IMG/VR virus record: IMGVR_UViG_2681813321_000031
Length of the DNA: 27,060 bases
Strand: one strand, 5' to 3'
DNA from: a virus
Taxonomy: Duplodnaviria > Heunggongvirae > Uroviricota > Caudoviricetes
Shown here: positions 7,340 to 27,060 of the stretch, in pieces
How positions within the stretch are numbered: position 1 is the first letter of the stretch
Layout: every line of letters begins with the position of its first letter
Program-made: the position numbers and the translations under genes
The notes under the pieces: model-generated
Database searches by the model: none
The model's input: the letters and a program-made list of their open reading frames with translations, nothing else
What the model was told of the DNA's origin: nothing

Positions 7340-7366
7340 ATAATTTGGATGTGAGGAAACGTGCGC

Positions 7367-10202: not shown

Positions 10203-11599
10203 AATAAACGCTCCGTTTTACTGCCCGACATGCGGTTATTGCTGTATCTGCGCGGATTGCCCGGCGTCATGGGTGTGGAAAGAACCCGGGCACTCTCCTG
10301 GTCCACAGGCAGAAAATGTCCGTTATGAAAACGCCGGTAAATGGTCCCGAGCGTGCCATTACGCTGTTTCGTGATGTTGATTTCTGCTATGCCTCTGGCC
10401 TGAGTTTCCGGGTTGTATACCTCATCCCTGTAAAGCATCAGAATGATGTCGGCATCCGCCTCGATTTCCCCGGAGTTTTTCAGGTCCGAGTTCATTGGGC
10501 GTTTATTGGGTCTGGATTCCACGCCGCGGGAGAGCTGGCTCAGAGCAATCAGCGGAAAACCGCCGGATTTTGCCAGGCTTTTAAGTCCCTTTGAGATTTC
10601 CCCCACAGCAAGGTCGTGACGCCCCGTGCTGCGGGTTTTAATCAGGCCGAGGTAATCGACCACAACCAGCGCCGTTTCCGGGTGTTTCATCCGGTGGTGC
10701 TTCGTGGTTGCACATATCTCATCAATGGTCAGGTTTGCCTGGTCCACCATCCAGATATTACGCCCCGTCATTCGTCCCACGCCCTGCGAGAAACGCGCCC
10801 AGTCTTCATCTTCAAAACGGGCAACAGACTTAAGACGGGATACCGGCATTCCACCGGCAGCAGACACCATACGTTCACCAATCTGGATGTTCGCCATCTC
10901 CATGGTGAACAGAAGCACGCCATGCCCCTGCTCAGTCACCTTGTCGATGATGTCCAGCGCAAGTTCGGTTTTCCCCATCGAAGGACGGGCGGCAATGAAT
11001 ACCAGGTCTCCGGGCTCCATACCGCCCGTTTTTGCGTCCAGTTCATCAATACCGGTCATCAGCGCCCTGGATTTCTCCAGTCCCTGATTGCGGCATTCAA
11101 CACGGTCGACCACTTCCGGAAGGACATCATCAATGTGAACCGGCTGAATGACGCCCTTTCCGGTCGACAGTGAGGCCATCATGTTCTGCGCATCCTTCAG
11201 GGCATCCTCGGCTGCTTCACAGGTATACGCATCACGTAAATTCTGTAATGCTTCAGTCAGTGTTTTTTCTGCATCGCGCAGTGCGGCATTGCGCCGCAAC
11301 GCTGCGACATAGTGCTCCAGTGAAGACTTCACCCAGGTTTTGCGTCCGGTGTCGGTAATCACCGGGGCAAGTTCCGGCATCTCATTGCACAGCAGTACGG
11401 GGTCAATGACGCCGAATATGCGAGCCTGTCTGCAAATCCCCGCGTAAATATCCCGGTACTGACGCACAAAAAATACATCCGCCGGAAGTGTGGCCAGAAT
11501 ATCCATCACTTCCGGATCGGCCCCACGCAGAAAAAACGCACCGATGACAGCGCCTTCCAGGTCATCGTTACGCCATGCCGGGGTGTTCTGGCTGGTCAT
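10199..11599 (-). CDS. DnaB-family replicative helicase, copy B
   Basis: Identical protein to 2648..4048. Confidence 0.95.
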   Translation of the reverse strand: MTSQNTPAWRNDDLEGAVIGAFFLRGADPEVMDILATLPADVFFVRQYRDIYAGICRQARIFGVIDPVLLCNEMPELAPVITDTGRKTWVKSSLEHYVAALRRNAALRDAEKTLTEALQNLRDAYTCEAAEDALKDAQNMMASLSTGKGVIQPVHIDDVLPEVVDRVECRNQGLEKSRALMTGIDELDAKTGGMEPGDLVFIAARPSMGKTELALDIIDKVTEQGHGVLLFTMEMANIQIGERMVSAAGGMPVSRLKSVARFEDEDWARFSQGVGRMTGRNIWMVDQANLTIDEICATTKHHRMKHPETALVVVDYLGLIKTRSTGRHDLAVGEISKGLKSLAKSGGFPLIALSQLSRGVESRPNKRPMNSDLKNSGEIEADADIILMLYRDEVYNPETQARGIAEINITKQRNGTLGTIYRRFHNGHFLPVDQESARVLSTPMTPGNPRRYSNNRMSGSKTERLF

Positions 11600-12504
11600 G
11601 CGGCAACACCTCCGATACGAGAACGGTAGCTGGGCCAGTTAAACGACAACCAGTTGCGCCCGCCATCGGTGATCCTGTCGGCAATCCGGGGACTGATGAA
11701 CGCCCACAATTCTTCCGGTGAAAGGTTGCTGATCAGGATAGTTGGCAAAATACCCTCATACCGGGCATTGATAATTTCCTGCAAAATGGCCATTTCAGCC
11801 GCACTGCCAAACTGAACGCCGACTTCGTCGACAATCAGCAAATCCAGTGACGCATAATGCTCAATGACGTCATCCGCTGTTTTTTCACTGTCATTCCGCC
11901 AGCAGTTTTTCACAGCCCGGGTAAGGCGCATCACGTCGGTGATCTCCACACTGGCCAGATAGTTACGGATGATGTGTTTTGCCATTGATACCGCCAGATG
12001 ATTTTTCCCGGTACCGCAACTGCCGGTCATAACAAGACTGGTACCGTTCTCCAGCATATCTGGCCAGTTCTCCGCATAGCGGCGACAGGCCGCAAGATTT
12101 CTGGCTGCGTCAGGATTAACCTCCAGATAATTATCAAACTCGCAGTCCCGAAAACGCAGAGCAATTCCGGCGTTATCAGTCAGTTCTTCCGCCTTGAGGG
12201 ACGACAGTTCCATGGTCAAATCACTGGCCTCAGCGATCAAGCAGTCAGGGCAGCATGAAATTTTTTCTCTGTCCTCGCCATTACGATCGATCCACACCAG
12301 TATATGCGTACGATATTTACCGTGTTTTTCGCAATATCCGCGACCTTCACGCATCAGGCAGGAACGATAAGGCCATGGCTTTTCGCCCTTCTGAGCAAAT
12401 GCAATCTCTGCCCGTAACTCATCCATTTCTGCCCGTAACTCATCCATTCGCGCCTGTAGTCTTGTTTGTTTCTCACGTTGGTCAATCGTCATCATCGCTG
12501 TCAC
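11596..12504 (-). CDS. DnaC/IstB-like helicase loader, copy B
   Basis: Identical protein to 4045..4953. Confidence 0.85.
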   Translation of the reverse strand: MTAMMTIDQREKQTRLQARMDELRAEMDELRAEIAFAQKGEKPWPYRSCLMREGRGYCEKHGKYRTHILVWIDRNGEDREKISCCPDCLIAEASDLTMELSSLKAEELTDNAGIALRFRDCEFDNYLEVNPDAARNLAACRRYAENWPDMLENGTSLVMTGSCGTGKNHLAVSMAKHIIRNYLASVEITDVMRLTRAVKNCWRNDSEKTADDVIEHYASLDLLIVDEVGVQFGSAAEMAILQEIINARYEGILPTILISNLSPEELWAFISPRIADRITDGGRNWLSFNWPSYRSRIGGVAA

Positions 12505-12505
12505 C

Positions 12506-13498
12506 TCAGAATGTCAATTTGTTACTGGATTTACCGAATTTGTCCGACATGGCTCCCAGGCCAGCCAGGACATCGACCTGTCGCTGTCGCCCACCTCCGT
12601 GAGCGGCTGGCTGTTGCCAGTAATCTTCGAAGTGACGATCGGGTCCAAAGAACGTCGCAGCCTGCTTCACGAACTGTGTGCCGATATTTCCTGTAGCACG
12701 TACCCAGGCGGCATACCGCTTCACGCCATCAAGCATGGTCTCCGGTTTTATTCCCTCCCTGATACGGGCTTTCCAGGCTTTGAAGGCTGCTGACTTGGAA
12801 TTGCCACCAGCACGTTTGGGATATTCCTGCCAGGCCTGTTCAAATTCCGGTGAATATTCCTGTCGGGCAGAACGCGCTGGCGCAGACGCGTCAGCGGATG
12901 CATCAATAGTGTTTTTAGTCTCCGTTGTAATCTCTGTAGTAATCTCTGTATTTGTATCAACATTCGGCGTATCCCCTGTTCCGTTATGACGTCGGGGGGT
13001 GTTCCGTTTTAACGTAATAGCTGTATCGCTGATTGCATTATTGCTGTTACTTTCTGGCGAAACAGAAGAAGGTGTGGTGATGGCCGCAATTGCCTGTGGG
13101 TTGATCCCGACAAACAAAATATTGCTGCATTTCACCCCATCGAGCATTTCCACCGTGCGTAAATCCAGAGTAATAAACCCTGCATCGCGCAGACGCTTCA
13201 GCGCATCTGCGGTTTCCCTTTTCCCGAAACCAAACTGCTCAGCAAACGCCTGGTAGCTTCTTTGCAGTTTGTCGCCCTGAAAACGCTTGCGATATCCCAG
13301 CAACGCTCCGGTGTGCTCATCCCTGACCTCTGTCGGGCGGTACCAGTAAACGATCTCTGAAAGCAGAGCGATAGCCGTCGCATCCGGACGCCCACTGGGT
13401 AGTCGAATATATTTCCACCAGTTCGCAGGTGTAACATTGCCGGAAATATTAATTTGACCAATAGCCATAACTTCCGGTGTGGGGGCGTAACGGCTCAT
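12506..13498 (-). CDS. putative replication initiator (O-like), copy B
   Basis: Identical protein to 4955..5947. Confidence 0.55.
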   Translation of the reverse strand: MSRYAPTPEVMAIGQINISGNVTPANWWKYIRLPSGRPDATAIALLSEIVYWYRPTEVRDEHTGALLGYRKRFQGDKLQRSYQAFAEQFGFGKRETADALKRLRDAGFITLDLRTVEMLDGVKCSNILFVGINPQAIAAITTPSSVSPESNSNNAISDTAITLKRNTPRRHNGTGDTPNVDTNTEITTEITTETKNTIDASADASAPARSARQEYSPEFEQAWQEYPKRAGGNSKSAAFKAWKARIREGIKPETMLDGVKRYAAWVRATGNIGTQFVKQAATFFGPDRHFEDYWQQPAAHGGGRQRQVDVLAGLGAMSDKFGKSSNKLTF

Positions 13499-13794
13499 AC
13501 AACCTCCTTCCGCGGCATGAGAATTGTGTAGCCACGCGCAGGTTGTAGTCTGGCTTTTGCATCAATAGTAAGCGTTGCAATTTTTCGGATATGAAGATAA
13601 CCAGCTCTTTCCAGTGCCAGGGTTTCCCTGAATATCGCTTGCTTAGAACAACAGCAGAAATCAGCAAGCACCTGATGATCAATAACTCTCTCGCCTTCAC
13701 CGTCTGAAGAACCCGACATCAAAACACGCAACATAATCAGGCGCTGAATCGGGTTATCGAAAGCACATCCGCACACAAACTGAAAACAGTTCAC
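13495..13794 (-). CDS. hypothetical protein, copy B
   Basis: Identical to 5944..6243. Confidence 0.45.
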   Translation of the reverse strand: MNCFQFVCGCAFDNPIQRLIMLRVLMSGSSDGEGERVIDHQVLADFCCCSKQAIFRETLALERAGYLHIRKIATLTIDAKARLQPARGYTILMPRKEVV

Positions 13795-14015
13795 GCCACA
13801 CCTCCCAGACGCTTAAACATTTTTCCAGACAGAAATACCGCCAGAGGGTAACTGATGGTGTAGCTACGCCCCTGTAGTTCGCACACGACTTTCTGGCTTT
13901 CAGCGTTGACTAGGCAAACCCGCAGAACGTGACCGTTGCTGGTGGCGAACCACTGCCCCACACGGGGGCAACGGTTGTATCGGTGATACAGGGAATTAAC
14001 GATGTGGCGGATCAT
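13791..14015 (-). CDS. hypothetical protein, copy B
   Basis: Identical to 6240..6464. Confidence 0.4.
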   Translation of the reverse strand: MIRHIVNSLYHRYNRCPRVGQWFATSNGHVLRVCLVNAESQKVVCELQGRSYTISYPLAVFLSGKMFKRLGGVA

Positions 14016-14206
14016 GGACGCACCTCCACCGTAGTTACGTATTTAACCGGGCTACCTTTCATTGAGATGGTTTCACACATCTCTGCCGCTTTCAGTTCCG
14101 CTGTTTTTCTGGATTTATAGCGACGGTGCCAGACAGATACATCCGTGCGAACTGATACATCGTTTCTGTATTCCGTAGTGGAGATGATGATTTCGTAACT
14201 AATCAT
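14012..14206 (-). CDS. hypothetical protein, copy B
   Basis: Identical to 6461..6655. Confidence 0.4.
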   Translation of the reverse strand: MISYEIIISTTEYRNDVSVRTDVSVWHRRYKSRKTAELKAAEMCETISMKGSPVKYVTTVEVRP

Positions 14207-14754
14207 GGGCGAACCTCCTTGTCAGAACCATTCAGCCTGGAATCAACAAGTGCAGCGCCAAAAACAGCATCACCAACACGGTCGTACAGTTTGCTAGCCA
14301 GCGGAGATTCAACGGCCTTAAGCATTGGATAAAGCTGGCTTGTCCAGATTTGATGGATTTCACGCAAATGCAGGTATACGCCTCTGGCGTTTCGTGCGAC
14401 AGCTGACATATCAGACGTATCGGCACCTGATAAACTCTTCTCCATCAGGTTAAAGGCGTTGATGTATGCCTCTTTGAACCGGGCAGCACGTTTACCAGTG
14501 AAGCCCATGGCAAGGAACGCGAAGCCATCGCGGGTGATTTGATAGCAAGGTAGTTTGCGGCCTGATGCGTCGGTGTATTCACTTAACACAAAATTGTGTT
14601 CAGTAAATTCAGCGGAACATTCGAGGTTTCTAATTCTATCTAAAACCCGCTCATGCCGTTTAGTAAAGTAATTAGCTACTGCAAGAGATGTGGTGACAAC
14701 GCGACCATTGATAATCGTGATTTCAGGGTGAGATTGGGTTGGGAGAGTAGTCAT
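14203..14754 (-). CDS. rha: phage regulatory protein Rha, divergent allele (core from ATG 14752-14754; track ORF extends to 15057)
   Basis: C-terminal half identical to copy A; the N-terminal Rha domain carries many substitutions (e.g. KQHKNVIQKIQTL vs KRHERVLDRIRNL). Confidence 0.8.
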   Translation of the reverse strand: MTTLPTQSHPEITIINGRVVTTSLAVANYFTKRHERVLDRIRNLECSAEFTEHNFVLSEYTDASGRKLPCYQITRDGFAFLAMGFTGKRAARFKEAYINAFNLMEKSLSGADTSDMSAVARNARGVYLHLREIHQIWTSQLYPMLKAVESPLASKLYDRVGDAVFGAALVDSRLNGSDKEVRP

Positions 14755-14814
14755 GGTGACAGCCCCTATGTTGAATTCAATGAACTCACCACCAAGGCTT
14801 TCCACGACCATATA

Positions 14815-14893
14815 GGTGGTGAGACGTACAGGGGTGGAAATACCGGTCAACATAGAACCCGGCCCAACCGAAGTTGGCCCTGCACGCCCCACC
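14815..14893 (-). ncRNA. candidate structured RNA element, copy B (covarying with 7261..7339)
   Basis: P1 strands identical to copy A; P2 is CCAAC-UUCG-GUUGG (plus strand 14864-14877); P3 retains the CCGG...CCGG pairing with a diverged loop. Confidence 0.45.
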
Positions 14894-14924
14894 ATAATTT
14901 GGGCGTAACGATGCTCATGACACG

Positions 14925-14946
14925 AAAAAACCGCATGAGCGCGGTT
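14925..14946 (-). terminator. intrinsic terminator-like hairpin + U tract, copy B
   Basis: Minus-strand AACCGC-GCUCAU-GCGGUU followed by UUUU; same stem as copy A, different loop. Confidence 0.4.
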
Positions 14947-15140
14947 GTGCTCTATATTGAATTTCGGGTTTCCACGCCCGGCACCCGCTTTATAAGGTGC
15001 CTGAGCAGTGTAACGTCCCGGAATTGCAGAATCAATATTTGGTCTTGAAATGATCATATAGCTGCTGATATCTTTAGAACTGTTCTTGGATGTTTCGGAG
15101 CCGTTTTATGCGAAACAGCTCCCCGTTATTGATGTTGAGT

Positions 15141-15166
15141 GAGCCGGGTTACTCCCGGCTTTTTTT
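15141..15166 (+). terminator. plus-strand intrinsic terminator, copy B
   Basis: Identical to 7584..7609. Confidence 0.45.
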
Positions 15167-15873
15167 CACCGCTGCCAACCAATAACCTGAAATAACCCCA
15201 TTTTCGGGTGATACCAGCGAGTCCCTCGCGGTTCTGCTTCCTCCATAACCCGATAAAAAGCAGCCATAAACGGTTCCACAGCAACAATTGCGCGACGTGA
15301 CAACAATCCGTCCGGCGTCATGAACTCATGGGTGTCTGTAGGAATTTGATAGGCGTTCACCAGATTGCGGCATTTATCATCTGACAAACCGGTTTTTGCT
15401 TTCAGTTGGCGATATCCGGCATAGCCCTCACGAATAGTGCCCTTTTTAATTTGCTCGACTGTTTCAGCAACGTGGCTGACTTTTTCTTCCACCTGAGTGA
15501 TCCGTTTCTGTTGGCGAACGGCTTCAAGAGCCATCGCGGCAACCATTTCGATTTCGCTCATTGGCTTACGGATCTGTTCTTCCAGTTCGCGCCAGCGATC
15601 TACCAGGCGAGCAGTGAATTCAGGACAGAGCTGTGCGACGACAATGATGCTGTCGCGCTTACCTCGTTCACCTTCGAATACATACGCGCTAGAAAATCGG
15701 CGAGGCCCAAGTGATTGTTTATTCTCAATTTCCACAGTCTGTGGAAATTGGATGATTCCCTTTTTAGCCAGTGTTTCAATAGTTCTCTTAACACTATCTG
15801 GTCGGCTTCCCACCAGCTCTGCGATCTCAACGCTGGTCATGGATGCTTTGCCGTTAAAAATTGCGGTGTTCAT
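15166..15873 (-). CDS. Rha/antirepressor-like regulatory protein (235 aa), copy B
   Basis: Identical to 7609..8316. Confidence 0.55.
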   Translation of the reverse strand: MNTAIFNGKASMTSVEIAELVGSRPDSVKRTIETLAKKGIIQFPQTVEIENKQSLGPRRFSSAYVFEGERGKRDSIIVVAQLCPEFTARLVDRWRELEEQIRKPMSEIEMVAAMALEAVRQQKRITQVEEKVSHVAETVEQIKKGTIREGYAGYRQLKAKTGLSDDKCRNLVNAYQIPTDTHEFMTPDGLLSRRAIVAVEPFMAAFYRVMEEAEPRGTRWYHPKMGLFQVIGWQR

Positions 15874-16097
15874 TGTTGGTCTCCTGTGGGCTTGTCATCT
15901 TCTGTATTCGCTAGACTTGGGTGTGTATATGGAATGCTCGGATCCAGATGACAAAGAATGGCAACATCCTCCGGAACACCTCGCGTTTTCCACTTTCCAA
16001 CACCTTGACTGCCACGAGGCCTTCCTTTCTTTGGGAACCTGCGACCAATAGCGGCATTGGTTTTAAATTGAATTTTTAATATTTCATAAAGGGTCAT
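15870..16097 (-). CDS. Cro/DicC-like protein, copy B
   Basis: Identical to 8313..8540. Confidence 0.5.
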   Translation of the reverse strand: MTLYEILKIQFKTNAAIGRRFPKKGRPRGSQGVGKWKTRGVPEDVAILCHLDPSIPYTHPSLANTEDDKPTGDQQ

Positions 16098-16208
16098 TCT
16101 TTAGTCTCACACCAGATACTTTGTTATTCAACGATGTTAACCACAGGAATCCAAAGTATCAAGAAATTCTGTTACTTTAGTATCAACAGCCATGAGAGGA
16201 GAAGAAAA
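16098..16208. promoter_or_regulatory. OR-like operator region, copy B
   Basis: Identical to 8541..8651. Confidence 0.5.
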
Positions 16209-16865
16209 ATGAAGTCTTTAGGTGAACGTCTCATCAACGCACGGCAAAAAGCTGGGTTAACACAAGATGCGTTGGCTAAAAAAGCTGGGATCACCAGAGT
16301 TGCAATCAGTAAAGCCGAGCAAGGCCTTACAAAAAGTTTCAACGGTGACACCCTTTTTAAAGTTGCAGCTGCACTGCGGTGTTCACCGCAGTGGCTTCAG
16401 AACGGAGATGAAAAAGATAAGCATTGGGAAAATAATGTTAAGAGCTGCCCACAGAGAGACACAGCACACTCTTACCCTGTAATTAACTGGGTTCAGGCAG
16501 GATTATTCGCAACTTCTGGTGATGACTACAACATGTATGATCAGGATAATTGGAGGCATTCTGTAAAATACGCTGGTGAGAGGGGGTTCTGGCTGGAAGT
16601 GCACGGAGACTCAATGACTTCGCCCGTAGGAATAACATTTCCTGAAGGAATGTCGATCCTTGTCAACCCAGATAAAGAAGTTTTTTCAGGGTGTTACGTC
16701 ATCGCCAGAAAAAAATCTACCAATGAAGCAACATTCAAAAAATATATTTCTGACATGGGAAAGGCGTTTCTAAAGCCCCTTAATCCACAATATCCAATCA
16801 TAGAAATGGACAATGATTGCGAAATAGTAGGTGTTGTGGTTGATGCCAGGTGGGATATTTTCTGA
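16209..16865 (+). CDS. CI-like repressor, copy B
   Basis: Identical to 8652..9308. Confidence 0.9.
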   Translation: MKSLGERLINARQKAGLTQDALAKKAGITRVAISKAEQGLTKSFNGDTLFKVAAALRCSPQWLQNGDEKDKHWENNVKSCPQRDTAHSYPVINWVQAGLFATSGDDYNMYDQDNWRHSVKYAGERGFWLEVHGDSMTSPVGITFPEGMSILVNPDKEVFSGCYVIARKKSTNEATFKKYISDMGKAFLKPLNPQYPIIEMDNDCEIVGVVVDARWDIF

Positions 16866-16968
16866 CCAGACACAAAACACAAAAAGAAACCAAAGTATCA
16901 AAAATCACTTGCCACACCTTGATACCTTAGTTACCATAAAACAAAGTTCGTAACTGAGGTATCATCCC
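16866..16968. promoter_or_regulatory. OL-like operator region, copy B
   Basis: Identical to 9309..9411. Confidence 0.4.
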
Positions 16969-17472
16969 ATGATCAATAAAGCTACAACTCTTGACTGTCT
17001 CGAAGAACTGAAAAACCTCGGCAGCCTCATTACACTAATAGCAAAAGCAACACCTGATGCTACGCTCTCTAGCGATATAGAGTCATGCGCAGGACTGGCA
17101 TGGGATATGACAAATAGCATATCCAGAAAGCTATCGTCAGCAATGCTTTTACAGAACAAAAATTCTGCAATCAACAACCGTCTTCGCACCCAACGCGAAG
17201 CCTGCGGCTTAACAACCGCCGAACTCGCCAGGCTGCTCGATCTCGATGAAGAAATTATCATCCAGTGGGAGAGCGGAGAGTATGAACCAACTATCAGTAT
17301 GCTTATCCCACTGGCAAATATTCTTGGCTGCGATCCGATGTGCCTGTTAACTGGTGAGGTTACTCCTCCGGAGCAACCAAAAAGTGAGGAGCAGCAACAC
17401 CATGACGCATCTCAACAAGTTTGCCCCTTATCTCGCGAAGCTCTTCTGCGGAAGAACCAATACCAATGGTGA
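16969..17472 (+). CDS. XRE-family HTH protein at the N position (167 aa; HTH in the central region)
   Basis: ...NNRLRTQREACGLTTAELARLLDLDEEIIIQWESGEYEPTISMLIPLANILGCDPMCLLTG is a typical XRE HTH_3 domain; the 58-aa N-terminal extension is uncharacterised (alternative start at ATG 17143). Confidence 0.65.
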   Translation: MINKATTLDCLEELKNLGSLITLIAKATPDATLSSDIESCAGLAWDMTNSISRKLSSAMLLQNKNSAINNRLRTQREACGLTTAELARLLDLDEEIIIQWESGEYEPTISMLIPLANILGCDPMCLLTGEVTPPEQPKSEEQQHHDASQQVCPLSREALLRKNQYQW

Positions 17473-17600
17473 CATAATCGCCGCTTCGCCCTTCAAGGTA
17501 CATGCGAACATTTTTATCAATCATTGCGGAAACAGTCTCAATATGAAAACACTTCTGAGACTCGCTATATAGCAGAACATATAAGTCAGCTGAGGAAGCC

Positions 17601-17966
17601 ATGAAAAAGTTCGAAAACATAACTGTTCTCCATGTTGATGACTTTGATTATACAAACCCGGAACTTCTCCCGGAGGTTGTAAAGGCAATGGATGTTGCCG
17701 ATATAGTGATTAGAGAAAAGAGAATTGTCAAAAACAGGCTCGCATGCACTTCAGGAGCAATGACAGAAACAACCTCACAGCAAGATAATTACGAAGGCAT
17801 TTGTCTGGAGCCTGATTCATTTGCGGTAAATGTTTATCATTTATTGCATGCAACACAGGTATTACATATGTCCAGTAATCACGAAACGAAAACACTCGGC
17901 AGCGAAATTCTGAGTTTTGCATGTGAGTATACAAAAGCTGCTGCCGAAAAAGAATTAGCGCAATAA
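17601..17966 (+). CDS. hypothetical protein (121 aa)
   Basis: ORF with GAGGAAG Shine-Dalgarno 5 nt before the ATG; no family recognised. Confidence 0.55.
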   Translation: MKKFENITVLHVDDFDYTNPELLPEVVKAMDVADIVIREKRIVKNRLACTSGAMTETTSQQDNYEGICLEPDSFAVNVYHLLHATQVLHMSSNHETKTLGSEILSFACEYTKAAAEKELAQ

Positions 17967-18160
17967 CAACAAATATGCCCTGAACGTTTATTGCGGTTTT
18001 ATCGCCGGGGATTGTTACAACCTTAATCCACAGGAGGCTTTATTGTGACTTTTATAAAGAATATGGCATCACACAAGACCGCCTGCCTTATTGCACAATA
18101 CGGTGAAAATTACATGCATATTGCCTGCTTATTTCTGCGTAAAGCATACGGGAGATAATA

Positions 18161-18361
18161 ATGCATCAGAAAACAGCAGAACACGAACAAACCAGAATAT
18201 TGCTGACCATCAAAAACGGGAAAGTAATATTCATTCGCCATGTTCATGACGATGAACTTGTAGGAACTCTTTCAACATTCCTGTTTATTGCAGAAAAGGC
18301 AGGATATGACGTTATTGCACCAGCAGATGAAGATGAAGATGAAGATGAAGATGAGGAATAA
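18161..18361 (+). CDS. hypothetical small protein with poly-acidic C-terminal tail (DEDEDEDEDEE)
   Basis: 66-aa ORF with GGGAGATAATAATG start context; tail encoded by the hexanucleotide repeat (GATGAA)4-GATGAG at 18328-18357. Confidence 0.5.
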   Translation: MHQKTAEHEQTRILLTIKNGKVIFIRHVHDDELVGTLSTFLFIAEKAGYDVIAPADEDEDEDEDEE

Positions 18362-18366
18362 ATATC

Positions 18367-18948
18367 ATGCAATACGATGAATTCCAGGCTGAAGCAACAG
18401 CCAATGGTATACGAACTGGCAGTATGACGATTGATTATCACGACGCCATACGTCGTCTGGATGCCGGAGAATTCGATACTCCTAATGTGCGAGGTTTACG
18501 TATCCTTCAGTGTCTGGCGCAAGCCGACGAAGCAGGATTACTGGGTAAACTTCCGGTTGAGATGAAGGTTGCTCAGTGGCGATGGTTGTATGTGACGACA
18601 TTCATCAACGAAGAAGAAGACAAGAACGGCACAATTGATATCCTGAATGAACACGGAACAACTGAACACGCCGTGGTATATAACGGGATGTATGGGTTTA
18701 TGACGATATATCCCGGCCCCATTCGATTTGCCTTACAACAGTATATTGAATGGAATTTAATTCAAAAATACGGCGAAGCTGAAGGAATGGGAAGAGCGCT
18801 GTTTCTTTATCAGAAAATGCTCACTACTTCCCCTGATAAAGGTTTCATTCTTTCAGATATGGGTCGAGAAGGGCTTGAAATCCTTCTGGATGAAATTATT
18901 AACGAAATGAATACTCATGGCATGCAATCCGAAACAGATATTAAGTAA
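18367..18948 (+). CDS. hypothetical protein (193 aa)
   Basis: ORF starting 6 nt after the previous stop; no family recognised. Confidence 0.6.
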   Translation: MQYDEFQAEATANGIRTGSMTIDYHDAIRRLDAGEFDTPNVRGLRILQCLAQADEAGLLGKLPVEMKVAQWRWLYVTTFINEEEDKNGTIDILNEHGTTEHAVVYNGMYGFMTIYPGPIRFALQQYIEWNLIQKYGEAEGMGRALFLYQKMLTTSPDKGFILSDMGREGLEILLDEIINEMNTHGMQSETDIK

Positions 18949-18958
18949 AAGGGACCAC

Positions 18959-19207
18959 ATGACCGTTATCGAGTATATCCAGGAAAATCCAGATTGCAGT
19001 AGAGAAGATATATCCCTCGCACTTGGAAGAAGCGCAACTTCTATCAGTAATGAATTATCACGGTTATTGTGGAATGGGTTAATAGTACGAACTGGAGAAA
19101 AAAACAAAATGATTCTGTACTGCGTAAACAATCTGCCGTTTGGATACAGCAATCCCCTAAGTGTTATGTTCAACCAGTTACTTAAACAGGTAAGAAATGG
19201 CAACTGA
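18959..19207 (+). CDS. hypothetical protein, possible winged-helix (82 aa from ATG 18959)
   Basis: Track ORF 18917..19207; the internal ATG at 18959 follows the upstream stop and AAGGG; ...REDISLALGRSATSISNELSRLLWNGLIV is HTH-like. Confidence 0.45.
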   Translation: MTVIEYIQENPDCSREDISLALGRSATSISNELSRLLWNGLIVRTGEKNKMILYCVNNLPFGYSNPLSVMFNQLLKQVRNGN

Positions 19208-19514
19208 CTCACAACTAACCATAGAAACGGCCCTGAATGTCGGCCTGGCGCTCCTTGGTTATTTTTACATCGTGTTCTGCAGCGGACGGTGGCTGTCGCT
19301 GTTGTTCCTGAAAAAATGGAATAAACGCCGTAAGCAGGATGAACGCCAGAAGGCAATGAATGCGTTTTCCGAAGCCTTCGGAATTGACGGCATGGAACCA
19401 GGGGATCCAGCTCGCGCAATCAGCAGAGGGGGTGTAGTAATCCTTGTATATCGGAGTGAAGAGAAAAATGACGATCACAAAACAACGAGTAGAAAAAATC
19501 ATATATCGCCATGA
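19197..19514 (+). CDS. hypothetical protein with N-terminal hydrophobic segment (105 aa)
   Basis: ALNVGLALLGYFYIVFCSGRWLSLLFL is a likely transmembrane helix; overlaps neighbours on both sides, so the extent is uncertain. Confidence 0.4.
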   Translation: MATDSQLTIETALNVGLALLGYFYIVFCSGRWLSLLFLKKWNKRRKQDERQKAMNAFSEAFGIDGMEPGDPARAISRGGVVILVYRSEEKNDDHKTTSRKNHISP

Positions 19515-19782
19515 AATGGGACTGAACAGCGATGTCACTGCCGAAGAGGTTTATGACCTGGCTGTACTGGCGCTGAATTTATCAAATATCGCAAACCTGA
19601 AGCGATACGAGCTTGATATGGATGGTTGCGACTCGTGCGGTCAGGATTGTGGCGCAGATATGACTGAAGATCCTGATGGTGATTATGTCCTGTTTGATGA
19701 CGTGGTTAAGTTGTTTGAATTTGATACAACCACTCAAAAGTTAGAAATCCCGGCAAAGGAGGCTGCCAGTGAGCAAGATTGA
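19468..19782 (+). CDS. hypothetical acidic protein (104 aa from ATG 19468)
   Basis: Track ORF 19444..19782 starts at TTG; the ATG at 19468 has GGAG upstream. Confidence 0.45.
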   Translation: MTITKQRVEKIIYRHEMGLNSDVTAEEVYDLAVLALNLSNIANLKRYELDMDGCDSCGQDCGADMTEDPDGDYVLFDDVVKLFEFDTTTQKLEIPAKEAASEQD

Positions 19783-19954
19783 CTATCAGGCACTGCGCGA
19801 GGCGGCGGAACAGGCAACGCAAGATGAATGGGTAGCATATATTTTGCCGGGTCATAACGGCATTTATCCTGCGCGCACGTCTGAGGGTAGGCATTGTGCG
19901 GATACTTTATTGACTGGCCTGGCGTCTGTCAGGGGCGGGAGAGCATCAACATGA
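19769..19954 (+). CDS. Ea22-like N-terminal family small protein (61 aa)
   Basis: N-terminus SKIDYQALREAAEQA parallels SEINYQALREVAERA of 20454..20939; same architecture AAGGAGG-6 nt-GTGAGC overlapping the upstream stop. Confidence 0.45.
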   Translation: MSKIDYQALREAAEQATQDEWVAYILPGHNGIYPARTSEGRHCADTLLTGLASVRGGRAST

Positions 19955-20457
19955 GCATCAGAACCTACGCAGTGAATTGCAATGACGCATGGCTAAACAC
20001 CGAAGGTGATGACATCTCCGGCTCATACGTTAAGTACAAAGACCATCAGGAAGTGGTTGCCGCTCTTGAGGCCAAGTGCGCGGCGCTGGCAGCGGAGAAT
20101 GCGGGAATAAAGTCTGCAATTCCAGAATCACGGGATATTGAAGATGACAATGACAATATGGATGACGTATCTCTCGCGGAAGACTTCGGGTTCAATCATG
20201 CAATAGAACGGATGAGGAGACAGATACCTGAAACGCCAACCACTGATGCTTTCCTGGCTGAAGTCCGGGCGCAGGGGGTGGATGCTGCTATAGAAGCTGC
20301 AAAAAATCTGGTGGCCCAAGAATATGAGTATAAGGATTTCAAAGCGGCGCAGAGTGATTGCTGTATGTACCCTGGTTCAGACCTGGTAGGGAAGGTTGAA
20401 ATGACTGAGTGGTTAGTTGACTTTGCTGCCCAGCTTCGCAAAGGAGGCAACCAGTGA
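19951..20457 (+). CDS. hypothetical acidic protein (168 aa from ATG 19951)
   Basis: ATGA overlap with the stop of 19769..19954; track ORF 19894..20457 starts at TTG. Confidence 0.5.
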   Translation: MSIRTYAVNCNDAWLNTEGDDISGSYVKYKDHQEVVAALEAKCAALAAENAGIKSAIPESRDIEDDNDNMDDVSLAEDFGFNHAIERMRRQIPETPTTDAFLAEVRAQGVDAAIEAAKNLVAQEYEYKDFKAAQSDCCMYPGSDLVGKVEMTEWLVDFAAQLRKGGNQ

Positions 20458-20939
20458 GCGAAATTAATTACCAGGCACTGCGTGAGGTGGCGGAACGTGC
20501 AATTCCAGCAATGGAACGCCTGTTAATGTTGCCAGCTGATGATGACTTGTTAAGTGAACAGGAACTTAAAGATTACGGTGTGGATATTGATGCGCTCAAC
20601 GCCTTCAAATTTCTGACCGGACCAGAAACCGTGCTGGCACTGCTGGATGAACGGGAAAGAAACCTGCAATACATCAAAAGCCGCGATCAGGAGAACGAGG
20701 ATATTGCGCTAACGGTAGGGAAGCTGCGCGTTGAGCTTGAAGCAGAAAAACAGCGGGCAAAAGTTCTATTTATGGAAAATGCTCGGCTTAAGTCAGGCAT
20801 AGCCGGTCTGATACACCTCGGTATTCGATATGCAGATGTTGAGGTCATGAAAATTGCTGGAGATGCCCAGCTTTCTACCCCATGCACTGACAGCATCATA
20901 AACAGCATTGCAACAGGCATTCGCATCAAAGGAGAGTGA
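20454..20939 (+). CDS. Ea22-like family protein (161 aa)
   Basis: Conserved N-terminal SEINYQALREVAERA motif typical of lambdoid ead/Ea22-like proteins; coiled-coil middle; AAGGAGG Shine-Dalgarno; GTG start overlapping the upstream stop. Confidence 0.65.
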   Translation: MSEINYQALREVAERAIPAMERLLMLPADDDLLSEQELKDYGVDIDALNAFKFLTGPETVLALLDERERNLQYIKSRDQENEDIALTVGKLRVELEAEKQRAKVLFMENARLKSGIAGLIHLGIRYADVEVMKIAGDAQLSTPCTDSIINSIATGIRIKGE

Positions 20940-20940
20940 T

Positions 20941-21456
20941 ATGGCGTTAACACACCACGAACTCTGTCAGATTGCGTACAAGTTCCTTAAGCGCAACGGG
21001 TTCAAGGTTTGCTTTCATGACCGCTTTGTTGCTGTAACCAGTACCGGAGAACAGCCAGATGCTATGGGATTCAGAAATTCAGCATCATGCCTGATAGAGG
21101 CGAAGTGTTCTCGTGCTGACTTGTTGGCAGATAGAAAAAAGCGTTTCCGTAAAAATCCCTCACTTGGCATGGGCGACTGGCGATTCTTTATTAGTGAGCC
21201 GGAAATTATTTCAGTTGAGGATTTACCTCCCGGCTGGGGATTACTTCACGTTGTTAACGGAAGAGTACGGAAAGTACATGGATGGCCCAGGGGTAATTGC
21301 TGTTGGGGTAATCCTGACGATAAGCCATTTACTGGGAATAAGCAGGTTGAATGCGATTACATGTTATCTGCATTAAGGCGCATGGAGTTGAGAGGGCACC
21401 TTAATGAAATATATGACGGTGTGATTGTTAATAAGAAAGAAGGAAACGCGGCATGA
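20941..21456 (+). CDS. hypothetical protein with PD-(D/E)xK-like nuclease motif (171 aa)
   Basis: ATG at 20941 preceded by AAAGGAGAG; ...DAMGF...CLIEAKCS... fits the D...(D/E)xK signature. The 3' end of this gene is where the 2.87-kb repeat begins. Confidence 0.5.
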   Translation: MALTHHELCQIAYKFLKRNGFKVCFHDRFVAVTSTGEQPDAMGFRNSASCLIEAKCSRADLLADRKKRFRKNPSLGMGDWRFFISEPEIISVEDLPPGWGLLHVVNGRVRKVHGWPRGNCCWGNPDDKPFTGNKQVECDYMLSALRRMELRGHLNEIYDGVIVNKKEGNAA

Positions 21457-22211
21457 TCACTATTACCAAAGGGCGACTGCTGACAATCAAGCAGTGGCGC
21501 GAAACATACGGACCGGGTAGCAACGTTGTACTGCCAGCAGAAGAAGCGGAAGAACTGGCACGAATTGCACTGGTATCGCTGGAAGCAGAGCCGGTGGCAA
21601 AGATTATAGCTCATTACCCATTAGGAGTTGACGTAGGCAAACAAAAGTTCGTACAGGCCATTGGAGAGCTTCCTGACTTTGGCGGATATCTATTTGCCGC
21701 CCCGCCAGCGCCGGTAGTGCCGGAAGAAGCAACTCCGGAAAACGTAGAAATGCTCTCTGGCTATGTTTCCACGTACAAATTAACCGATAGCGAGCGCGAT
21801 ATTGCTGCCGAAATATGGAACGCCTGCCGCACCGCCATGCTTCAGTCCGGAAACTTTCGGGAAAGCAAGAATTCGTCAACCAATAATTTTCGGGAAATCC
21901 CGGAAGCGTCAACCAGCTCTCCGGTAACTCCGGCTCTTCTGCCTGGTGGTTTCACCATTGAGGAGGCGAAGGAATTACATGAAGACCTGGTACGCAGCCA
22001 CATAAGCAAGGCCTTAAGTGGCGAAAAGATGAAAAAGAAAGATCGCGATGCTGATTTGCGCTGGATTCATGGCGTTATAGTTCAGGCAGCGTGGTTTGTA
22101 AAAGCATCACTGGAGCAGAATGCACTATCGGGCAACTCTCCGGTAACTCCGGATGGTTGGATAAGCTGTAGTGAGCGAATGCCGGACGACAGGCAGGAGG
22201 TGAATCAATGA
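21453..22211 (+). CDS. DUF551-like prophage protein (252 aa)
   Basis: C-terminal PDGWISCSERMPD resembles the DUF551 signature; ATGA coupling with the upstream gene. Confidence 0.6.
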   Translation: MITITKGRLLTIKQWRETYGPGSNVVLPAEEAEELARIALVSLEAEPVAKIIAHYPLGVDVGKQKFVQAIGELPDFGGYLFAAPPAPVVPEEATPENVEMLSGYVSTYKLTDSERDIAAEIWNACRTAMLQSGNFRESKNSSTNNFREIPEASTSSPVTPALLPGGFTIEEAKELHEDLVRSHISKALSGEKMKKKDRDADLRWIHGVIVQAAWFVKASLEQNALSGNSPVTPDGWISCSERMPDDRQEVNQ

Positions 22212-22291
22212 GCTGGCCTGATGCAATCGTAACTCTGGGGGTGGTATTCGCAGCAGCGTTTGTTGTGTTCTCGATTTGTCGATGGGGATAA
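22208..22291 (+). CDS. candidate 27-aa hydrophobic micropeptide
   Basis: MSWPDAIVTLGVVFAAAFVVFSICRWG; ATG overlaps the DUF551 stop (ATGA). Too short for the ORF track. Confidence 0.3.
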   Translation: MSWPDAIVTLGVVFAAAFVVFSICRWG

Positions 22292-22295
22292 CCAC

Positions 22296-22538
22296 ATGTT
22301 CGCTTTGATTCAACGCGGTCAGATATACACGGACAGAGCTGGATACCCCGTGGTGATTACTCGCATCACTGAGCACTCAGTGTTCTTTCGACGGATGGAC
22401 GGACGATCCGGGCGGGTACGCATTGGTGAGTTAAACTGCCTGTTCGAACATATTGACCACCAGGAGTACCGCAAAATTCTCGCGGACACTGAGCAGGAAA
22501 AGCACCTGAAAAAATTACGAGCCATAAAAAGGAAGTAA
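22296..22538 (+). CDS. hypothetical protein (80 aa from ATG 22296)
   Basis: Track ORF 22260..22538 starts at TTG; ATG at 22296. Confidence 0.45.
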   Translation: MFALIQRGQIYTDRAGYPVVITRITEHSVFFRRMDGRSGRVRIGELNCLFEHIDHQEYRKILADTEQEKHLKKLRAIKRK

Positions 22539-22550
22539 AGAATGAATAAA

Positions 22551-22571
22551 NNNNNNNNNNNNNNNNNNNNN
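22551..22571. other. assembly gap (21 N)
   Basis: Run of n; an ATG (22542) with AAGGAAG Shine-Dalgarno opens an ORF that runs straight into the gap. Confidence 1.
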
Positions 22572-23623
22572 GGGGACGCTGGGTGATTGAAGGCGACCTG
22601 TCCAGTTACTTCGACACCGTACATCATCGACTGCTGATGAAGGCTGTACGCCGCAGGATCAGTGACGCACGTTTCATGACTCTGCTGTGGAAAACCATCA
22701 AGGCGGGACATATCGATGTCGGTCTCTTTCGGGCGGCCAGTGAAGGTGTGCCACAGGGCGGTGTTATATCGCCGCTATTATCGAACATCATGCTGAATGA
22801 GTTCGATCAATACCTGCATGAGCGCTACCTGAGCGGGAAAGCCAGAAAAGATCGGTGGTACTGGAATAACAGTATCCAACGGGGCCGAAGTACGGCGGTC
22901 AGAGAAAACTGGCAGTGGAAACCCGCGGTGGCGTACTGCCGCTATGCCGATGATTTTGTCCTCATCGTCAAAGGCACCAAAGCACAGGCGGAAGCCATCA
23001 GGGAGGAGTGTCGGGGTGTGCTCGAAGGCAGTCTGAAACTCAGGCTGAACATGGATAAGACTAAAATCACCCATGTTAATGACGGCTTTATCTTTCTGGG
23101 GCACAGGATCATTCGCAAACGCAGTCGTTATGGCGAGATGCGAGTGGTCTCAACGATCCCGCAGGAGAAAGCCAGAAACTTCGCCGCATCGCTGACAGCA
23201 CTGTTATCAGGCAACTACAGTGAAAGCAAAGTCGATATGGCTGAACAACTCAACCGAAAACTGAAAGGCTGGGCCATGTTCTATCAGTTCGTTGATTTTA
23301 AGGCCAAAGTCTTCAGTTATATCGACCGTGTCGTGTTCTGGAAGCTGGCTCACTGGCTGGCCCGCAAATACCGTACAGGTATCGCTTCCCTGATGAGGTG
23401 GTGGTGTAAATCACCGAAACCGGGTCAGAGCAAAACGTGGGTTTTATTTGGTAAAACCAATCACGGCAAGCTCAGCGGCGAAATACTGTACCGGTTGGTG
23501 GGGCAAGGCAAGAAGCTGTTCCGCTGGCGGCTACCCGAAGGTAATCCCTATCTGAGGACGGAGACCAGAAACACGTATACATCGCGCTTTACAGAAGTGG
23601 CAATGGCGTTCGCCAGCATTTAA
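22572..23623 (+). CDS. group II intron-encoded reverse transcriptase/maturase, 5'-truncated by the gap, no endonuclease domain
   Basis: GRWVIEGDLSSYFDTVHH, VPQGGVISPLLSNIMLNEFD and YCRYADDFVLIV parallel the RT motifs of Ll.LtrB LtrA; LKGWAMFYQF is maturase-domain-X-like. Frame is open upstream into the N-run. Confidence 0.85.
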
Positions 23624-23628
23624 ATGGA

Positions 23629-23662
23629 GAGCCGGATGCGCTGAAAGGTGCACGTCCGGTTC
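23629..23662 (+). ncRNA. group II intron domain V (catalytic hairpin)
   Basis: GAGCCGGATGCGCTGAAAGGTGCACGTCCGGTTC: 34 nt, AGC triad, GAAA tetraloop, 2-nt bulge; near-identical in architecture to the Ll.LtrB domain V as recalled. Followed by a domain VI-like hairpin with a bulged A (~23663-23711). Confidence 0.85.
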
Positions 23663-23685
23663 GGGGAGGAGAGGCAGGGAAATAG

Positions 23686-24200
<515 letters not shown>

Positions 24201-24324
24201 TGGGAATAAGCAGGTTGAATGCGATTACATGTTATCTGCATTAAGGCGCATGGAGTTGAGAGGGCACCTTAATGAAATATATGACGGTGTGATTGTTAAT
24301 AAGAAAGAAGGAAACGCGGCATGA
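24201..24324 (+). pseudogene. 3' fragment of the PD-(D/E)xK-like gene (duplicate of 21333..21456)
   Basis: Begins abruptly at the IS right end; lacks a start codon. Confidence 0.6.
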
Positions 24325-25079
24325 TCACTATTACCAAAGGGCGACTGCTGACAATCAAGCAGTGGCGCGAAACATACGGACCGGGTAGCAACGTTGTACT
24401 GCCAGCAGAAGAAGCGGAAGAACTGGCACGAATTGCACTGGTATCGCTGGAAGCAGAGCCGGTGGCAAAGATTATAGCTCATTACCCATTAGGAGTTGAC
24501 GTAGGCAAACAAAAGTTCGTACAGGCCATTGGAGAGCTTCCTGACTTTGGCGGATATCTATTTGCCGCCCCGCCAGCGCCGGTAGTGCCGGAAGAAGCAA
24601 CTCCGGAAAACGTAGAAATGCTCTCTGGCTATGTTTCCACGTACAAATTAACCGATAGCGAGCGCGATATTGCTGCCGAAATATGGAACGCCTGCCGCAC
24701 CGCCATGCTTCAGTCCGGAAACTTTCGGGAAAGCAAGAATTCGTCAACCAATAATTTTCGGGAAATCCCGGAAGCGTCAACCAGCTCTCCGGTAACTCCG
24801 GCTCTTCTGCCTGGTGGTTTCACCATTGAGGAGGCGAAGGAATTACATGAAGACCTGGTACGCAGCCACATAAGCAAGGCCTTAAGTGGCGAAAAGATGA
24901 AAAAGAAAGATCGCGATGCTGATTTGCGCTGGATTCATGGCGTTATAGTTCAGGCAGCGTGGTTTGTAAAAGCATCACTGGAGCAGAATGCACTATCGGG
25001 CAACTCTCCGGTAACTCCGGATGGTTGGATAAGCTGTAGTGAGCGAATGCCGGACGACAGGCAGGAGGTGAATCAATGA
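24321..25079 (+). CDS. DUF551-like protein, copy B
   Basis: Identical to 21453..22211. Confidence 0.6.
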   Translation: MITITKGRLLTIKQWRETYGPGSNVVLPAEEAEELARIALVSLEAEPVAKIIAHYPLGVDVGKQKFVQAIGELPDFGGYLFAAPPAPVVPEEATPENVEMLSGYVSTYKLTDSERDIAAEIWNACRTAMLQSGNFRESKNSSTNNFREIPEASTSSPVTPALLPGGFTIEEAKELHEDLVRSHISKALSGEKMKKKDRDADLRWIHGVIVQAAWFVKASLEQNALSGNSPVTPDGWISCSERMPDDRQEVNQ

Positions 25080-25159
25080 GCTGGCCTGATGCAATCGTAA
25101 CTCTGGGGGTGGTATTCGCAGCAGCGTTTGTTGTGTTCTCGATTTGTCGATGGGGATAA
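25076..25159 (+). CDS. candidate 27-aa hydrophobic micropeptide, copy B
   Basis: Identical to 22208..22291. Confidence 0.3.
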   Translation: MSWPDAIVTLGVVFAAAFVVFSICRWG

Positions 25160-25163
25160 CCAC

Positions 25164-25406
25164 ATGTTCGCTTTGATTCAACGCGGTCAGATATACACGG
25201 ACAGAGCTGGATACCCCGTGGTGATTACTCGCATCACTGAGCACTCAGTGTTCTTTCGACGGATGGACGGACGATCCGGGCGGGTACGCATTGGTGAGTT
25301 AAACTGCCTGTTCGAACATATTGACCACCAGGAGTACCGCAAAATTCTCGCGGACACTGAGCAGGAAAAGCACCTGAAAAAATTACGAGCCATAAAAAGG
25401 AAGTAA
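25164..25406 (+). CDS. hypothetical protein (80 aa), copy B
   Basis: Identical to 22296..22538. Confidence 0.45.
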   Translation: MFALIQRGQIYTDRAGYPVVITRITEHSVFFRRMDGRSGRVRIGELNCLFEHIDHQEYRKILADTEQEKHLKKLRAIKRK

Positions 25407-25418
25407 AGAATGAATAAA

Positions 25419-25439
25419 NNNNNNNNNNNNNNNNNNNNN
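25419..25439. other. assembly gap (21 N), copy B
   Basis: Run of n identical in length and position to 22551..22571. Confidence 1.
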
Positions 25440-26491
25440 GGGGACGCTGGGTGATTGAAGGCGACCTGTCCAGTTACTTCGACACCGTACATCATCGACT
25501 GCTGATGAAGGCTGTACGCCGCAGGATCAGTGACGCACGTTTCATGACTCTGCTGTGGAAAACCATCAAGGCGGGACATATCGATGTCGGTCTCTTTCGG
25601 GCGGCCAGTGAAGGTGTGCCACAGGGCGGTGTTATATCGCCGCTATTATCGAACATCATGCTGAATGAGTTCGATCAATACCTGCATGAGCGCTACCTGA
25701 GCGGGAAAGCCAGAAAAGATCGGTGGTACTGGAATAACAGTATCCAACGGGGCCGAAGTACGGCGGTCAGAGAAAACTGGCAGTGGAAACCCGCGGTGGC
25801 GTACTGCCGCTATGCCGATGATTTTGTCCTCATCGTCAAAGGCACCAAAGCACAGGCGGAAGCCATCAGGGAGGAGTGTCGGGGTGTGCTCGAAGGCAGT
25901 CTGAAACTCAGGCTGAACATGGATAAGACTAAAATCACCCATGTTAATGACGGCTTTATCTTTCTGGGGCACAGGATCATTCGCAAACGCAGTCGTTATG
26001 GCGAGATGCGAGTGGTCTCAACGATCCCGCAGGAGAAAGCCAGAAACTTCGCCGCATCGCTGACAGCACTGTTATCAGGCAACTACAGTGAAAGCAAAGT
26101 CGATATGGCTGAACAACTCAACCGAAAACTGAAAGGCTGGGCCATGTTCTATCAGTTCGTTGATTTTAAGGCCAAAGTCTTCAGTTATATCGACCGTGTC
26201 GTGTTCTGGAAGCTGGCTCACTGGCTGGCCCGCAAATACCGTACAGGTATCGCTTCCCTGATGAGGTGGTGGTGTAAATCACCGAAACCGGGTCAGAGCA
26301 AAACGTGGGTTTTATTTGGTAAAACCAATCACGGCAAGCTCAGCGGCGAAATACTGTACCGGTTGGTGGGGCAAGGCAAGAAGCTGTTCCGCTGGCGGCT
26401 ACCCGAAGGTAATCCCTATCTGAGGACGGAGACCAGAAACACGTATACATCGCGCTTTACAGAAGTGGCAATGGCGTTCGCCAGCATTTAA
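25440..26491 (+). CDS. group II intron RT/maturase (5'-truncated), copy B
   Basis: Identical to 22572..23623. Confidence 0.85.
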
Positions 26492-26496
26492 ATGGA

Positions 26497-26530
26497 GAGC
26501 CGGATGCGCTGAAAGGTGCACGTCCGGTTC
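26497..26530 (+). ncRNA. group II intron domain V, copy B
   Basis: Identical to 23629..23662. Confidence 0.85.
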
Positions 26531-26553
26531 GGGGAGGAGAGGCAGGGAAATAG

Positions 26554-27060
<507 letters not shown>

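Follow-up and report, generated by a model that had tools for sequence, protein, structure and literature searches.

A repeat-tailed small protein of a phiP27/Stx-type prophage as a probable FsoA-type antirepressor

The target gene and its hexanucleotide repeat

In this study we analyzed a small gene located in the IMG/VR virus record IMGVR_UViG_2681813321_000031. The complete record, a stretch of 27,060 nucleotides (nt) given as one strand and here referred to as the window, is a lambdoid prophage of the phiP27/Shiga toxin (Stx)-converting type. The gene, here named the target, encodes a protein of 66 amino acids (aa) which ends in a run of Asp and Glu residues. By analogy with its characterised homologues it is probably a small trans-acting antirepressor of the FsoA type, a member of the GfoA/FsoA/Rem family (PHROG 340). 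The following features were found at the gene itself:

18150–18155, + strand: Shine-Dalgarno-like sequence GGGAGA, 5 nt before the target ATG, invariant in 8/8 aligned alleles
18161–18361, + strand: target coding sequence with ATG start and TAA stop (included), 66 aa; PHROG 340 member and homologue of FsoA, GfoA and Rem
18191–18322, + strand: core domain (residues 11–54) with a predicted beta-hairpin (13–18, 21–27) and helix (37–46), ending in AGY.V..P
18326–18355, + strand: hexanucleotide microsatellite (GATGAA)x4 + GATGAG, coding for DEDEDEDEDE, with 1–6 GATGAA copies among near-identical alleles

The translation of the target is MHQKTAEHEQTRILLTIKNGKVIFIRHVHDDELVGTLSTFLFIAEKAGYDVIAPADEDEDEDEDEE, with the C-terminal end ADEDEDEDEDEDEE. 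The four GATGAA units span 18326–18349 and are followed by GATGAG, GAA and the stop codon TAA. For 18325–18354 Tandem Repeats Finder reported a period of 6 with 5.0 copies and 100% matches, and the chance expectation for such a perfect array in 27 kb is about 2e-10. An Asp/Glu tail encoded by (GATGAA)4-GATGAG had been described in an earlier, sequence-only reading of the window, with which both the sequence and the repeat program agree. The array can additionally be read as a poly-Ser open reading frame (ORF) on the minus strand and as KM repeats in another frame; both readings simply follow from the repeat itself. NCBI already lists the identical 66-aa sequence as a hypothetical protein (MULTISPECIES, Enterobacteriaceae), and the Prokaryotic Genome Annotation Pipeline (PGAP) labelled the target as hypothetical protein in every genome checked.

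Homology to characterised antirepressors

In the PHROGs collection the target matched phrog_340 (E=3.6e-23), a family labelled as of unknown function. Two PHROGs annotated as anti-repressor were matched more weakly, in their C-terminal parts. Comparison of known antirepressors with phrog_340 and, by hhalign, with the family profile A2 gave the following results:

FsoA: phrog_340, E=1.1e-26; hhalign 99.0%, E=2.8e-18
GfoA orthologues: phrog_340, E about 1e-20; hhalign 94.6%
K-12 Rem: phrog_340, E=1.6e-20; hhalign 73.9%
Rem of Rac-SA53: phrog_340, E=2.4e-15; hhalign 96.9%
GftA: no phrog_340 match (phrog_4847); hhalign 46%

Target and FsoA share 46% identity over the 37-aa core (BLASTP). The assignment of fsoA to a sequence followed from the published primers le154 and le162, whose sequences coincide exactly with the first and the last codons of STM0898.2n in Fels-1. 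The gfoA primer le163 codes for the GfoA C-terminus RRLGYRVTPPSDI, which holds the family motif, and led to dinI-adjacent GfoA orthologues in the phages SEN34 and mEp237. These orthologues came from phage records, as a search with the gfoA primer in viral_contigs gave no match. A tblastn search with the homologue P0057 found a gene annotated as rem in phage Rac-SA53 as well as the Fels-1 left-operon gene. The FsoA and GfoA-orthologue genes are named hypothetical protein in the records of Fels-1, SEN34 and mEp237 (L013:2435-2668, L017:1309-1557 and L014:3652-3903, respectively). Thus, the target has core homology to characterised members, and, as expected for the family (range about 58–85 aa), it is a small single-domain protein whose gene lies in a lambdoid prophage but not in its immunity region.

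Experimental data are available for these homologues. GfoA and GftA form stable complexes with non-cleavable Gifsy repressors, and GftA frees GtgR from operator DNA, most likely, as its authors concluded, by a conformational change in the repressor (PMC3121763). FsoA is encoded in the left operon of Fels-1 under the cleavable repressor FsoR and inactivates the Gifsy-2 repressor in trans; the induction of Fels-1 itself does not need FsoA (PMC3121763). C-terminal 3xFLAG tags, themselves acidic, leave GftA and FsoA unimpaired (PMC3121763). Rem of the K-12 prophage Qin is an antirepressor of DicA, which derepressed dicBp 165-fold and caused filamentation through DicB/DicF; its authors had been led to it by its homology to GfoA and FsoA, antirepressors of Salmonella (PMC10448788). 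Literature searches on phiP27 L07 and on newer structural work on Rem and DicA gave nothing further.

The closest known system is FsoA of Fels-1 (STM0898.2n; PMC3121763), which shares with the target the membership in PHROG 340, the left-operon position, a cleavable repressor with helix-turn-helix (HTH) and S24 domains encoded upstream, and the lack of LexA control. The repressor targeted by FsoA is established as GtgR of Gifsy-2. FsoA is of similar size (78 aa versus 66 aa) and differs in a 30-aa N-terminal extension and in its end ...GIRFEEISNVG, which carries neither a polyacidic tail nor a microsatellite. The other genes in its neighbourhood are different ones, and the 193-aa gene next to the target is not conserved beside fsoA. 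GfoA and GfhA of Gifsy-1 and Gifsy-3 share PHROG 340 and the GY.V.PP motif (GfoA ...RRLGYRVTPPSDI versus target ...KAGYDVIAPADE...). However, GfoA-type genes lie in the nin region beside dinI, preceded by a LexA box and a terminator, and the phage's own repressor is non-cleavable, whereas the target gene is part of a left operon, lacks a LexA box and belongs to a phage whose repressor is cleavable. Rem of Qin (PMC10448788) has the PHROG family, the core register and the host species in common with the target. Its gene is located between hokD and ydfU, upstream of Q and thus in a nin-region position, and the protein has an internal hairpin insertion or duplication and no acidic tail.

Two further candidates were rejected as relatives. 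For GftA the kinship is only marginal (hhalign 46%). Tum of coliphage 186, an antirepressor fused to a DinI-like acidic half, recalls the acidic C-terminal part of the target and was mentioned as a functional analogue by Lemire et al. (PMC3121763), but it is a LexA-controlled protein of 146 aa with an hhalign probability of 0.1% against the family profile.

Conserved core and acidic tail

Homologues were collected by an exhaustive HMMER search with the tail-less target followed by a profile search. The search found phiP27 L07 and several hundred proteins of 54–85 aa from Escherichia, Salmonella, Klebsiella, Raoultella, Serratia and Pantoea, with 442 proteins matching the family profile at E<=0.001. 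Two long proteins, P0048 (1950 aa) and P0066 (530 aa), gave repeat matches in multiple stretches and are not homologues. The core pattern R[IV]LLTIENGxVI..R...D.E...S.DTF....[KR]AGY.V..P is shared by all homologues. Past the AGY.V..P motif the proteins end in diverged short polar tails, e.g. AKEQTL, NTEKQ, HQEEISGTNSNTHS, HPAMSD and SDI. Polyacidic tails were found only in the E. coli clade which holds the target, with ADEDEE as minimal form.

The net charge of the whole protein is about -12. The tail accounts for about -11, the core for about -1 (isoelectric point 6.4). An AlphaFold2 model based on a 57-sequence alignment reached a predicted local distance difference test score (pLDDT) of 91–95 over residues 11–50 and of ~54 in the tail, so the prediction points to a tail that is probably a disordered, clade-specific appendage. 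Scans of the target against Pfam, NCBIfam and PADLOC, anti-restriction families included, gave no match. PF27490 is recorded for a few homologues.

The homologue P0057 (120 aa) carries two copies of the core in tandem. Together with the core matches in the C-terminal parts of the anti-repressor PHROGs 4792 and 2379 this suggests that the core is a portable module. A Klebsiella/Salmonella subclade (P0049, P0053, P0058, P0059; L010:2408-2662) ends in a C-terminal motif of its own, [DN]S[DNH]T[HN]S, with the examples GTDSDTHS, INSNTHS and ADSHTHS. A possible origin of this motif is that the coding sequence overlaps the next gene or the ribosome-binding site of that gene.

Length variation between alleles

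Allele DNA was aligned from five E. coli genomes and two phages. The alleles carried 1, 2, 4, 5 or 6 GATGAA units and differed by whole units on almost invariant flanks. Three pairs of alleles had no substitution over 233 flanking nt and were still 2–4 units apart. Identical flanks combined with different unit numbers indicate that the repeat changes faster than by point mutation, as slippage predicts. The tail had been suspected to be slippage-variable before, and the repeat-length comparison bears this out with 1–6 units, all in frame and between near-identical flanks.

Within the 90%-identity cluster of the 66-aa protein the length classes are unequally represented. The 60-aa and the 62-aa class were each found on at least 1000 contigs, the 64-aa class (3 units) on 265 and the 66-aa class on about 170; a 68-aa form is recorded as a separate cluster, and a 70-aa allele was found in E. 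coli O111:H21 15A. The shortest alleles, with 1–2 repeat units, are thus by far the commonest. Since the unit comprises 6 nt, the reading frame is kept in every repeat variant, and the downstream Shine-Dalgarno sequence and its spacing, located 3' of the repeat, are unchanged in all alleles. The polymorphism is therefore a length variation and not an on/off phase variation: the copy number varies between near-identical alleles as in a contingency locus, but no switching of expression by frameshift or promoter spacing was seen. Additionally, frameshifted or truncated variants of the target are present in the databases (P0019-P0026). The DEDEE ending is kept in alleles whose cores differ by ~20%.

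Prophage context and the left operon

A megablast search with 16000–21000 showed 99% identity to Escherichia phage PhiR49_2 and also found many Stx1a/Stx2a-converting phages and phiP27. The neighbourhood of the target contains the following features:

16134–16865, + strand: CI-type repressor with HTH_3 and Peptidase_S24 domains (Pfam), of the cleavable LexA-like type
16886–16900, 16920–16934 and 16950–16964, + strand: three operator-like sites overlapping a sigma-70-like promoter at 16909–16937
16969–17472, + strand: 167-aa XRE-type HTH protein, homologue of phiP27 L10, first gene of the left operon, no peptidase domain
17601–17966, + strand: 121-aa protein, homologue of phiP27 L08, PHROG 5451 (function unknown), part of a conserved L08-L07-L06 block
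18045–18158, + strand: 37-aa ORF with GTG start and a strong AGGAGG Shine-Dalgarno sequence, ending 2 nt before the target ATG
18353–18357, + strand: Shine-Dalgarno-like GAGGA within the last two Glu codons of the tail, 9 nt before the ATG at 18367
18367–18948, + strand: 193-aa gene, homologue of phiP27 L06 (65% identity), PHROG 1515 (function unknown)

The target starts ~1.3 kb past the end of cI on the same strand and is the only PHROG 340-family member in the window. In the complete phage records examined the gene order was cI - HTH regulator - L08 - (37-aa ORF) - target - L06. After L06 variable accessory genes follow, such as a MarR-like regulator in Stx1_14040 and Ea22 in PhiR49_2, and then xis and int. 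In the window L06 is followed by MarR-like, DUF4752 and Ead/Ea22-like genes. The placement of the target as a small early-left protein, as proposed from the sequence-only reading, is in agreement with this arrangement: it lies downstream of a cI-type repressor, in an operon which ends in xis/int in the related complete phages.

The cI counterpart in related genomes is annotated by PGAP as a 657-nt LexA family protein, and the true start of cI is probably the ATG at 16209. The region 16886–16964 is a candidate OL/pL, from which we infer that the left operon with the target would be driven. The 15-nt operator-like motif GTWACTNWRGTATCA had 10 matches versus 0.61 expected, all flanking two copies of cI, although this enrichment is partly circular as the motif was defined from the same sites. 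One site is located between cro and cI (16171–16185) and three lie just downstream of cI; the set is repeated by the second cI copy (8614–8628 and 9329–9407). The three copies ~30 nt apart over the promoter-like site resemble the layout of OL1-3. No + strand terminator was predicted between the promoter at 16909–16937 and the target. No LexA box is present near the target, and matches to it occurred at chance level. The resident HTH+S24 repressor, the operator-like sites over a promoter-like site and the lack of a LexA box are consistent with control of the FsoA type.

The 167-aa protein has a DicA-like HTH (35% identity to the HTH of DicA, E=1e-13) and no similarity to GtgR. Its gene takes the place that N has in lambda. 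The protein could act as an additional regulator, and it would be a conceivable target of the antirepressor in cis. The 37-aa ORF is given as a coding sequence in two phage records and was not called by PGAP, so that its status is uncertain; it had no family matches in Pfam, NCBIfam, PADLOC or PHROGs. The 193-aa gene starts 5 nt after the target stop, with the same spacing in five E. coli genomes and two phage records. Its ribosome-binding site is likely the GAGGA inside the tail codons, which is conserved in all aligned alleles. Neither the 193-aa nor the 121-aa protein had PDB or informative family matches. A reading of the locus as a toxin-antitoxin or two-gene module gained no support, as the neighbours lack informative matches and FsoA has no conserved partner of the 193-aa type.

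A mosaic boundary is located at ~18160–18185. The nucleotide identity to phiP27 is 94.6% only up to about 18184, and past this boundary phiP27 L07 is only 49% identical to the target at the protein level. Some E. coli genomes lack the target and contain no more than the ~120 nt that precede it (the region of the 37-aa ORF). On the right-operon side, two proteins encoded at 14203–15057 and 15166–15873 (minus strand) carry Phage_pRha domains, one of them also an Ash domain, and one is named Roi or DNA-binding protein in related phages. An antirepressor Ant is found in the adjacent position in Stx1_14040. Because of the Phage_pRha proteins and this neighbouring Ant, the phage appears to carry further regulator- or antirepressor-like genes.

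Proposed function

Based on the studies of its homologues the following course of events can be proposed for the target. In a lysogen the resident CI/LexA-type repressor would occupy the operators over pL and keep the left operon silent. Upon SOS induction, with self-cleavage of CI, or upon infection, pL would fire and the 66-aa protein would be made together with the other early-left genes. Through its ~45-aa hairpin-helix core the protein would attach to a short, non-cleavable XRE-type repressor of the DicA/GfoR/GtgR class and drive it off its operator. The bound repressor would belong to a co-resident or cryptic prophage, so that induction could spread between prophages ("prophage crosstalk"). 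Candidate targets in E. coli include repressors of the DicA/RacR class.

The tail would be a by-product of the same stretch of DNA. Its terminal codons GAG GAA presumably double as the Shine-Dalgarno sequence of the next gene, and the neighbouring GATGAA-GATGAG pair could have served as a proto-microsatellite which expands and contracts by replication slippage and never leaves the frame. Antirepression can probably do without the tail, whose effect would be modulatory at most. Since 3xFLAG tags were harmless in GftA and FsoA, the C-terminus appears to tolerate appendages, and we infer that the tail is nearly neutral.

Several points weigh against this antirepressor assignment. The experiments concern homologues outside the E. 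coli clade of the target. Specificity in the family is narrow and unpredictable, as three other candidate antirepressors were inactive on dicBp (PMC10448788), and the role of FsoA for its own phage is unexplained (PMC3121763). The biochemically best studied protein, GftA, is only weakly related and belongs to a separate PHROG, no solved structure or fold match backs any mode of binding, and the partial circularity of the operator motif has to be kept in mind. Finally, the tail may not be purely neutral, given that DEDEE is kept despite the divergence of the core; this retention could be due to the overlapping Shine-Dalgarno sequence.

Alternative explanations

In the sequence-only reading the protein was suggested to be a DNA mimic, whose polyanionic tail would imitate the DNA backbone and block a restriction or defence protein early in infection. 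Ocr and ArdA are small acidic early proteins which act in this way, and the target resembles T7 Ocr and ArdA in being small, strongly acidic overall, early and encoded on a mobile element; its DEDEE ending is conserved within the clade. However, known DNA mimics carry their charge on a rigid fold, while in the target the core is near-neutral, and structure prediction together with the charge distribution put the excess charge into the low-confidence, probably disordered tail instead of a folded, DNA-shaped surface. Sequence or family matches to Ocr, ArdA, anti-restriction Pfam families or PADLOC entries were not obtained, the commonest alleles have only 1–2 repeat units, and the core is homologous to characterised antirepressors. 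Moreover, outside the clade, in other genera as well, the homologues conserve the core and have no such tail, an outcome named beforehand as refuting the idea. We consider a DNA mimic very improbable. The tail could alternatively serve antirepression itself, as an electrostatic DNA-like decoy that helps to displace the repressor, with the repeat number tuning potency or specificity. DNA-binding surfaces of repressors are basic, FsoA is fairly acidic as well (net charge -6), DEDEE is kept across diverged alleles, and six length classes are maintained in nature. Yet functional homologues do without such a tail (GfoA ends in SDI, Rem in SGE, FsoA in SNVG), short alleles dominate, and the terminal Glu codons are equally explained by the overlapping Shine-Dalgarno sequence. 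The tolerance of unrelated C-terminal tags and the conformational change thought to underlie GftA action (PMC3121763) likewise argue against it, and we regard a functional tail as quite unlikely. That the tail helps to compete with DNA for the DNA-binding surface of the repressor is speculation. The wider idea that it is a tunable polyanion which strips repressors or other host and phage DNA-binding proteins from DNA, with the microsatellite length as a phage-borne "rheostat", seems improbable; if true, the repeat would set how easily co-resident prophages, Stx phages included, are cross-induced in a given E. coli lineage.

A different possibility is that the core regulates a partner from its own operon, either the 193-aa L06-like or the 167-aa DicA-like HTH protein, and not a foreign prophage repressor. 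Conservation of the L08-L07-L06 block extends from phiP27 to the Stx phages, with a fixed spacer of 5 nt to the next gene, the 167-aa protein has the DicA-like HTH, and the core is also found in other settings, at the C-terminal end of larger anti-repressor PHROGs and duplicated in tandem in P0057. On the other hand, the 193-aa protein is conserved neither beside FsoA nor beside the Rem/GfoA-type members, which lie in the nin region before irsA-like genes, and the three family members tested all act on XRE-type repressors. Even with the 167-aa HTH protein as its target, the 66-aa protein would still function as an antirepressor. This possibility is unlikely. It is extremely improbable that the ORF is non-functional or decaying with a freely drifting repeat. 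The frameshifted and truncated database variants would fit such a decay, but the core motif is conserved across six genera in the 442 profile-matching proteins, the Shine-Dalgarno sequence is invariant, the fold is confidently predicted and all repeat variants are in frame. Antirepression by the core, with a largely neutral tail, remains the reading we prefer.

Significance

The antirepressor family, its mechanism and the arrangement of the FsoA type have been published already. New is the placement of the target, which like the whole E. coli/Stx-phage clade is unannotated, within a PHROG that has no function label. PHROG 340 holds three characterised antirepressors, and recognizing this fills an annotation gap. 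An antirepressor of the FsoA type, acting in trans, is thereby predicted for the phiP27-like and Stx1/Stx2-converting prophages of pathogenic E. coli. By means of such proteins the induction of several prophages within a single cell can be coupled. With Shiga-toxin phages and the cryptic-prophage toxins DicB/DicF this would bear on the release of toxin and on what becomes of the cell after SOS stress. With its variable acidic tail the target represents a phage regulatory gene that carries a natural in-frame microsatellite, and the evidence suggests that the tail is secondary to the function.

Duplications within the window

Two tandem direct duplications were found in the window. The first (2200–9761 versus 9751–17318) comprises 7.6 kb of the replication and immunity region with cro and cI at 98.0% identity. 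The second (21333–24192 versus 24201–27060) comprises 2.86 kb with 100% identity and contains IS911-like transposase sequence. In a set of 5,426 complete E. coli genomes no sequence spanned either junction, which leaves a rare rearrangement or an artefact of the assembly as explanations. The single-copy stretch between both duplications contains the target.

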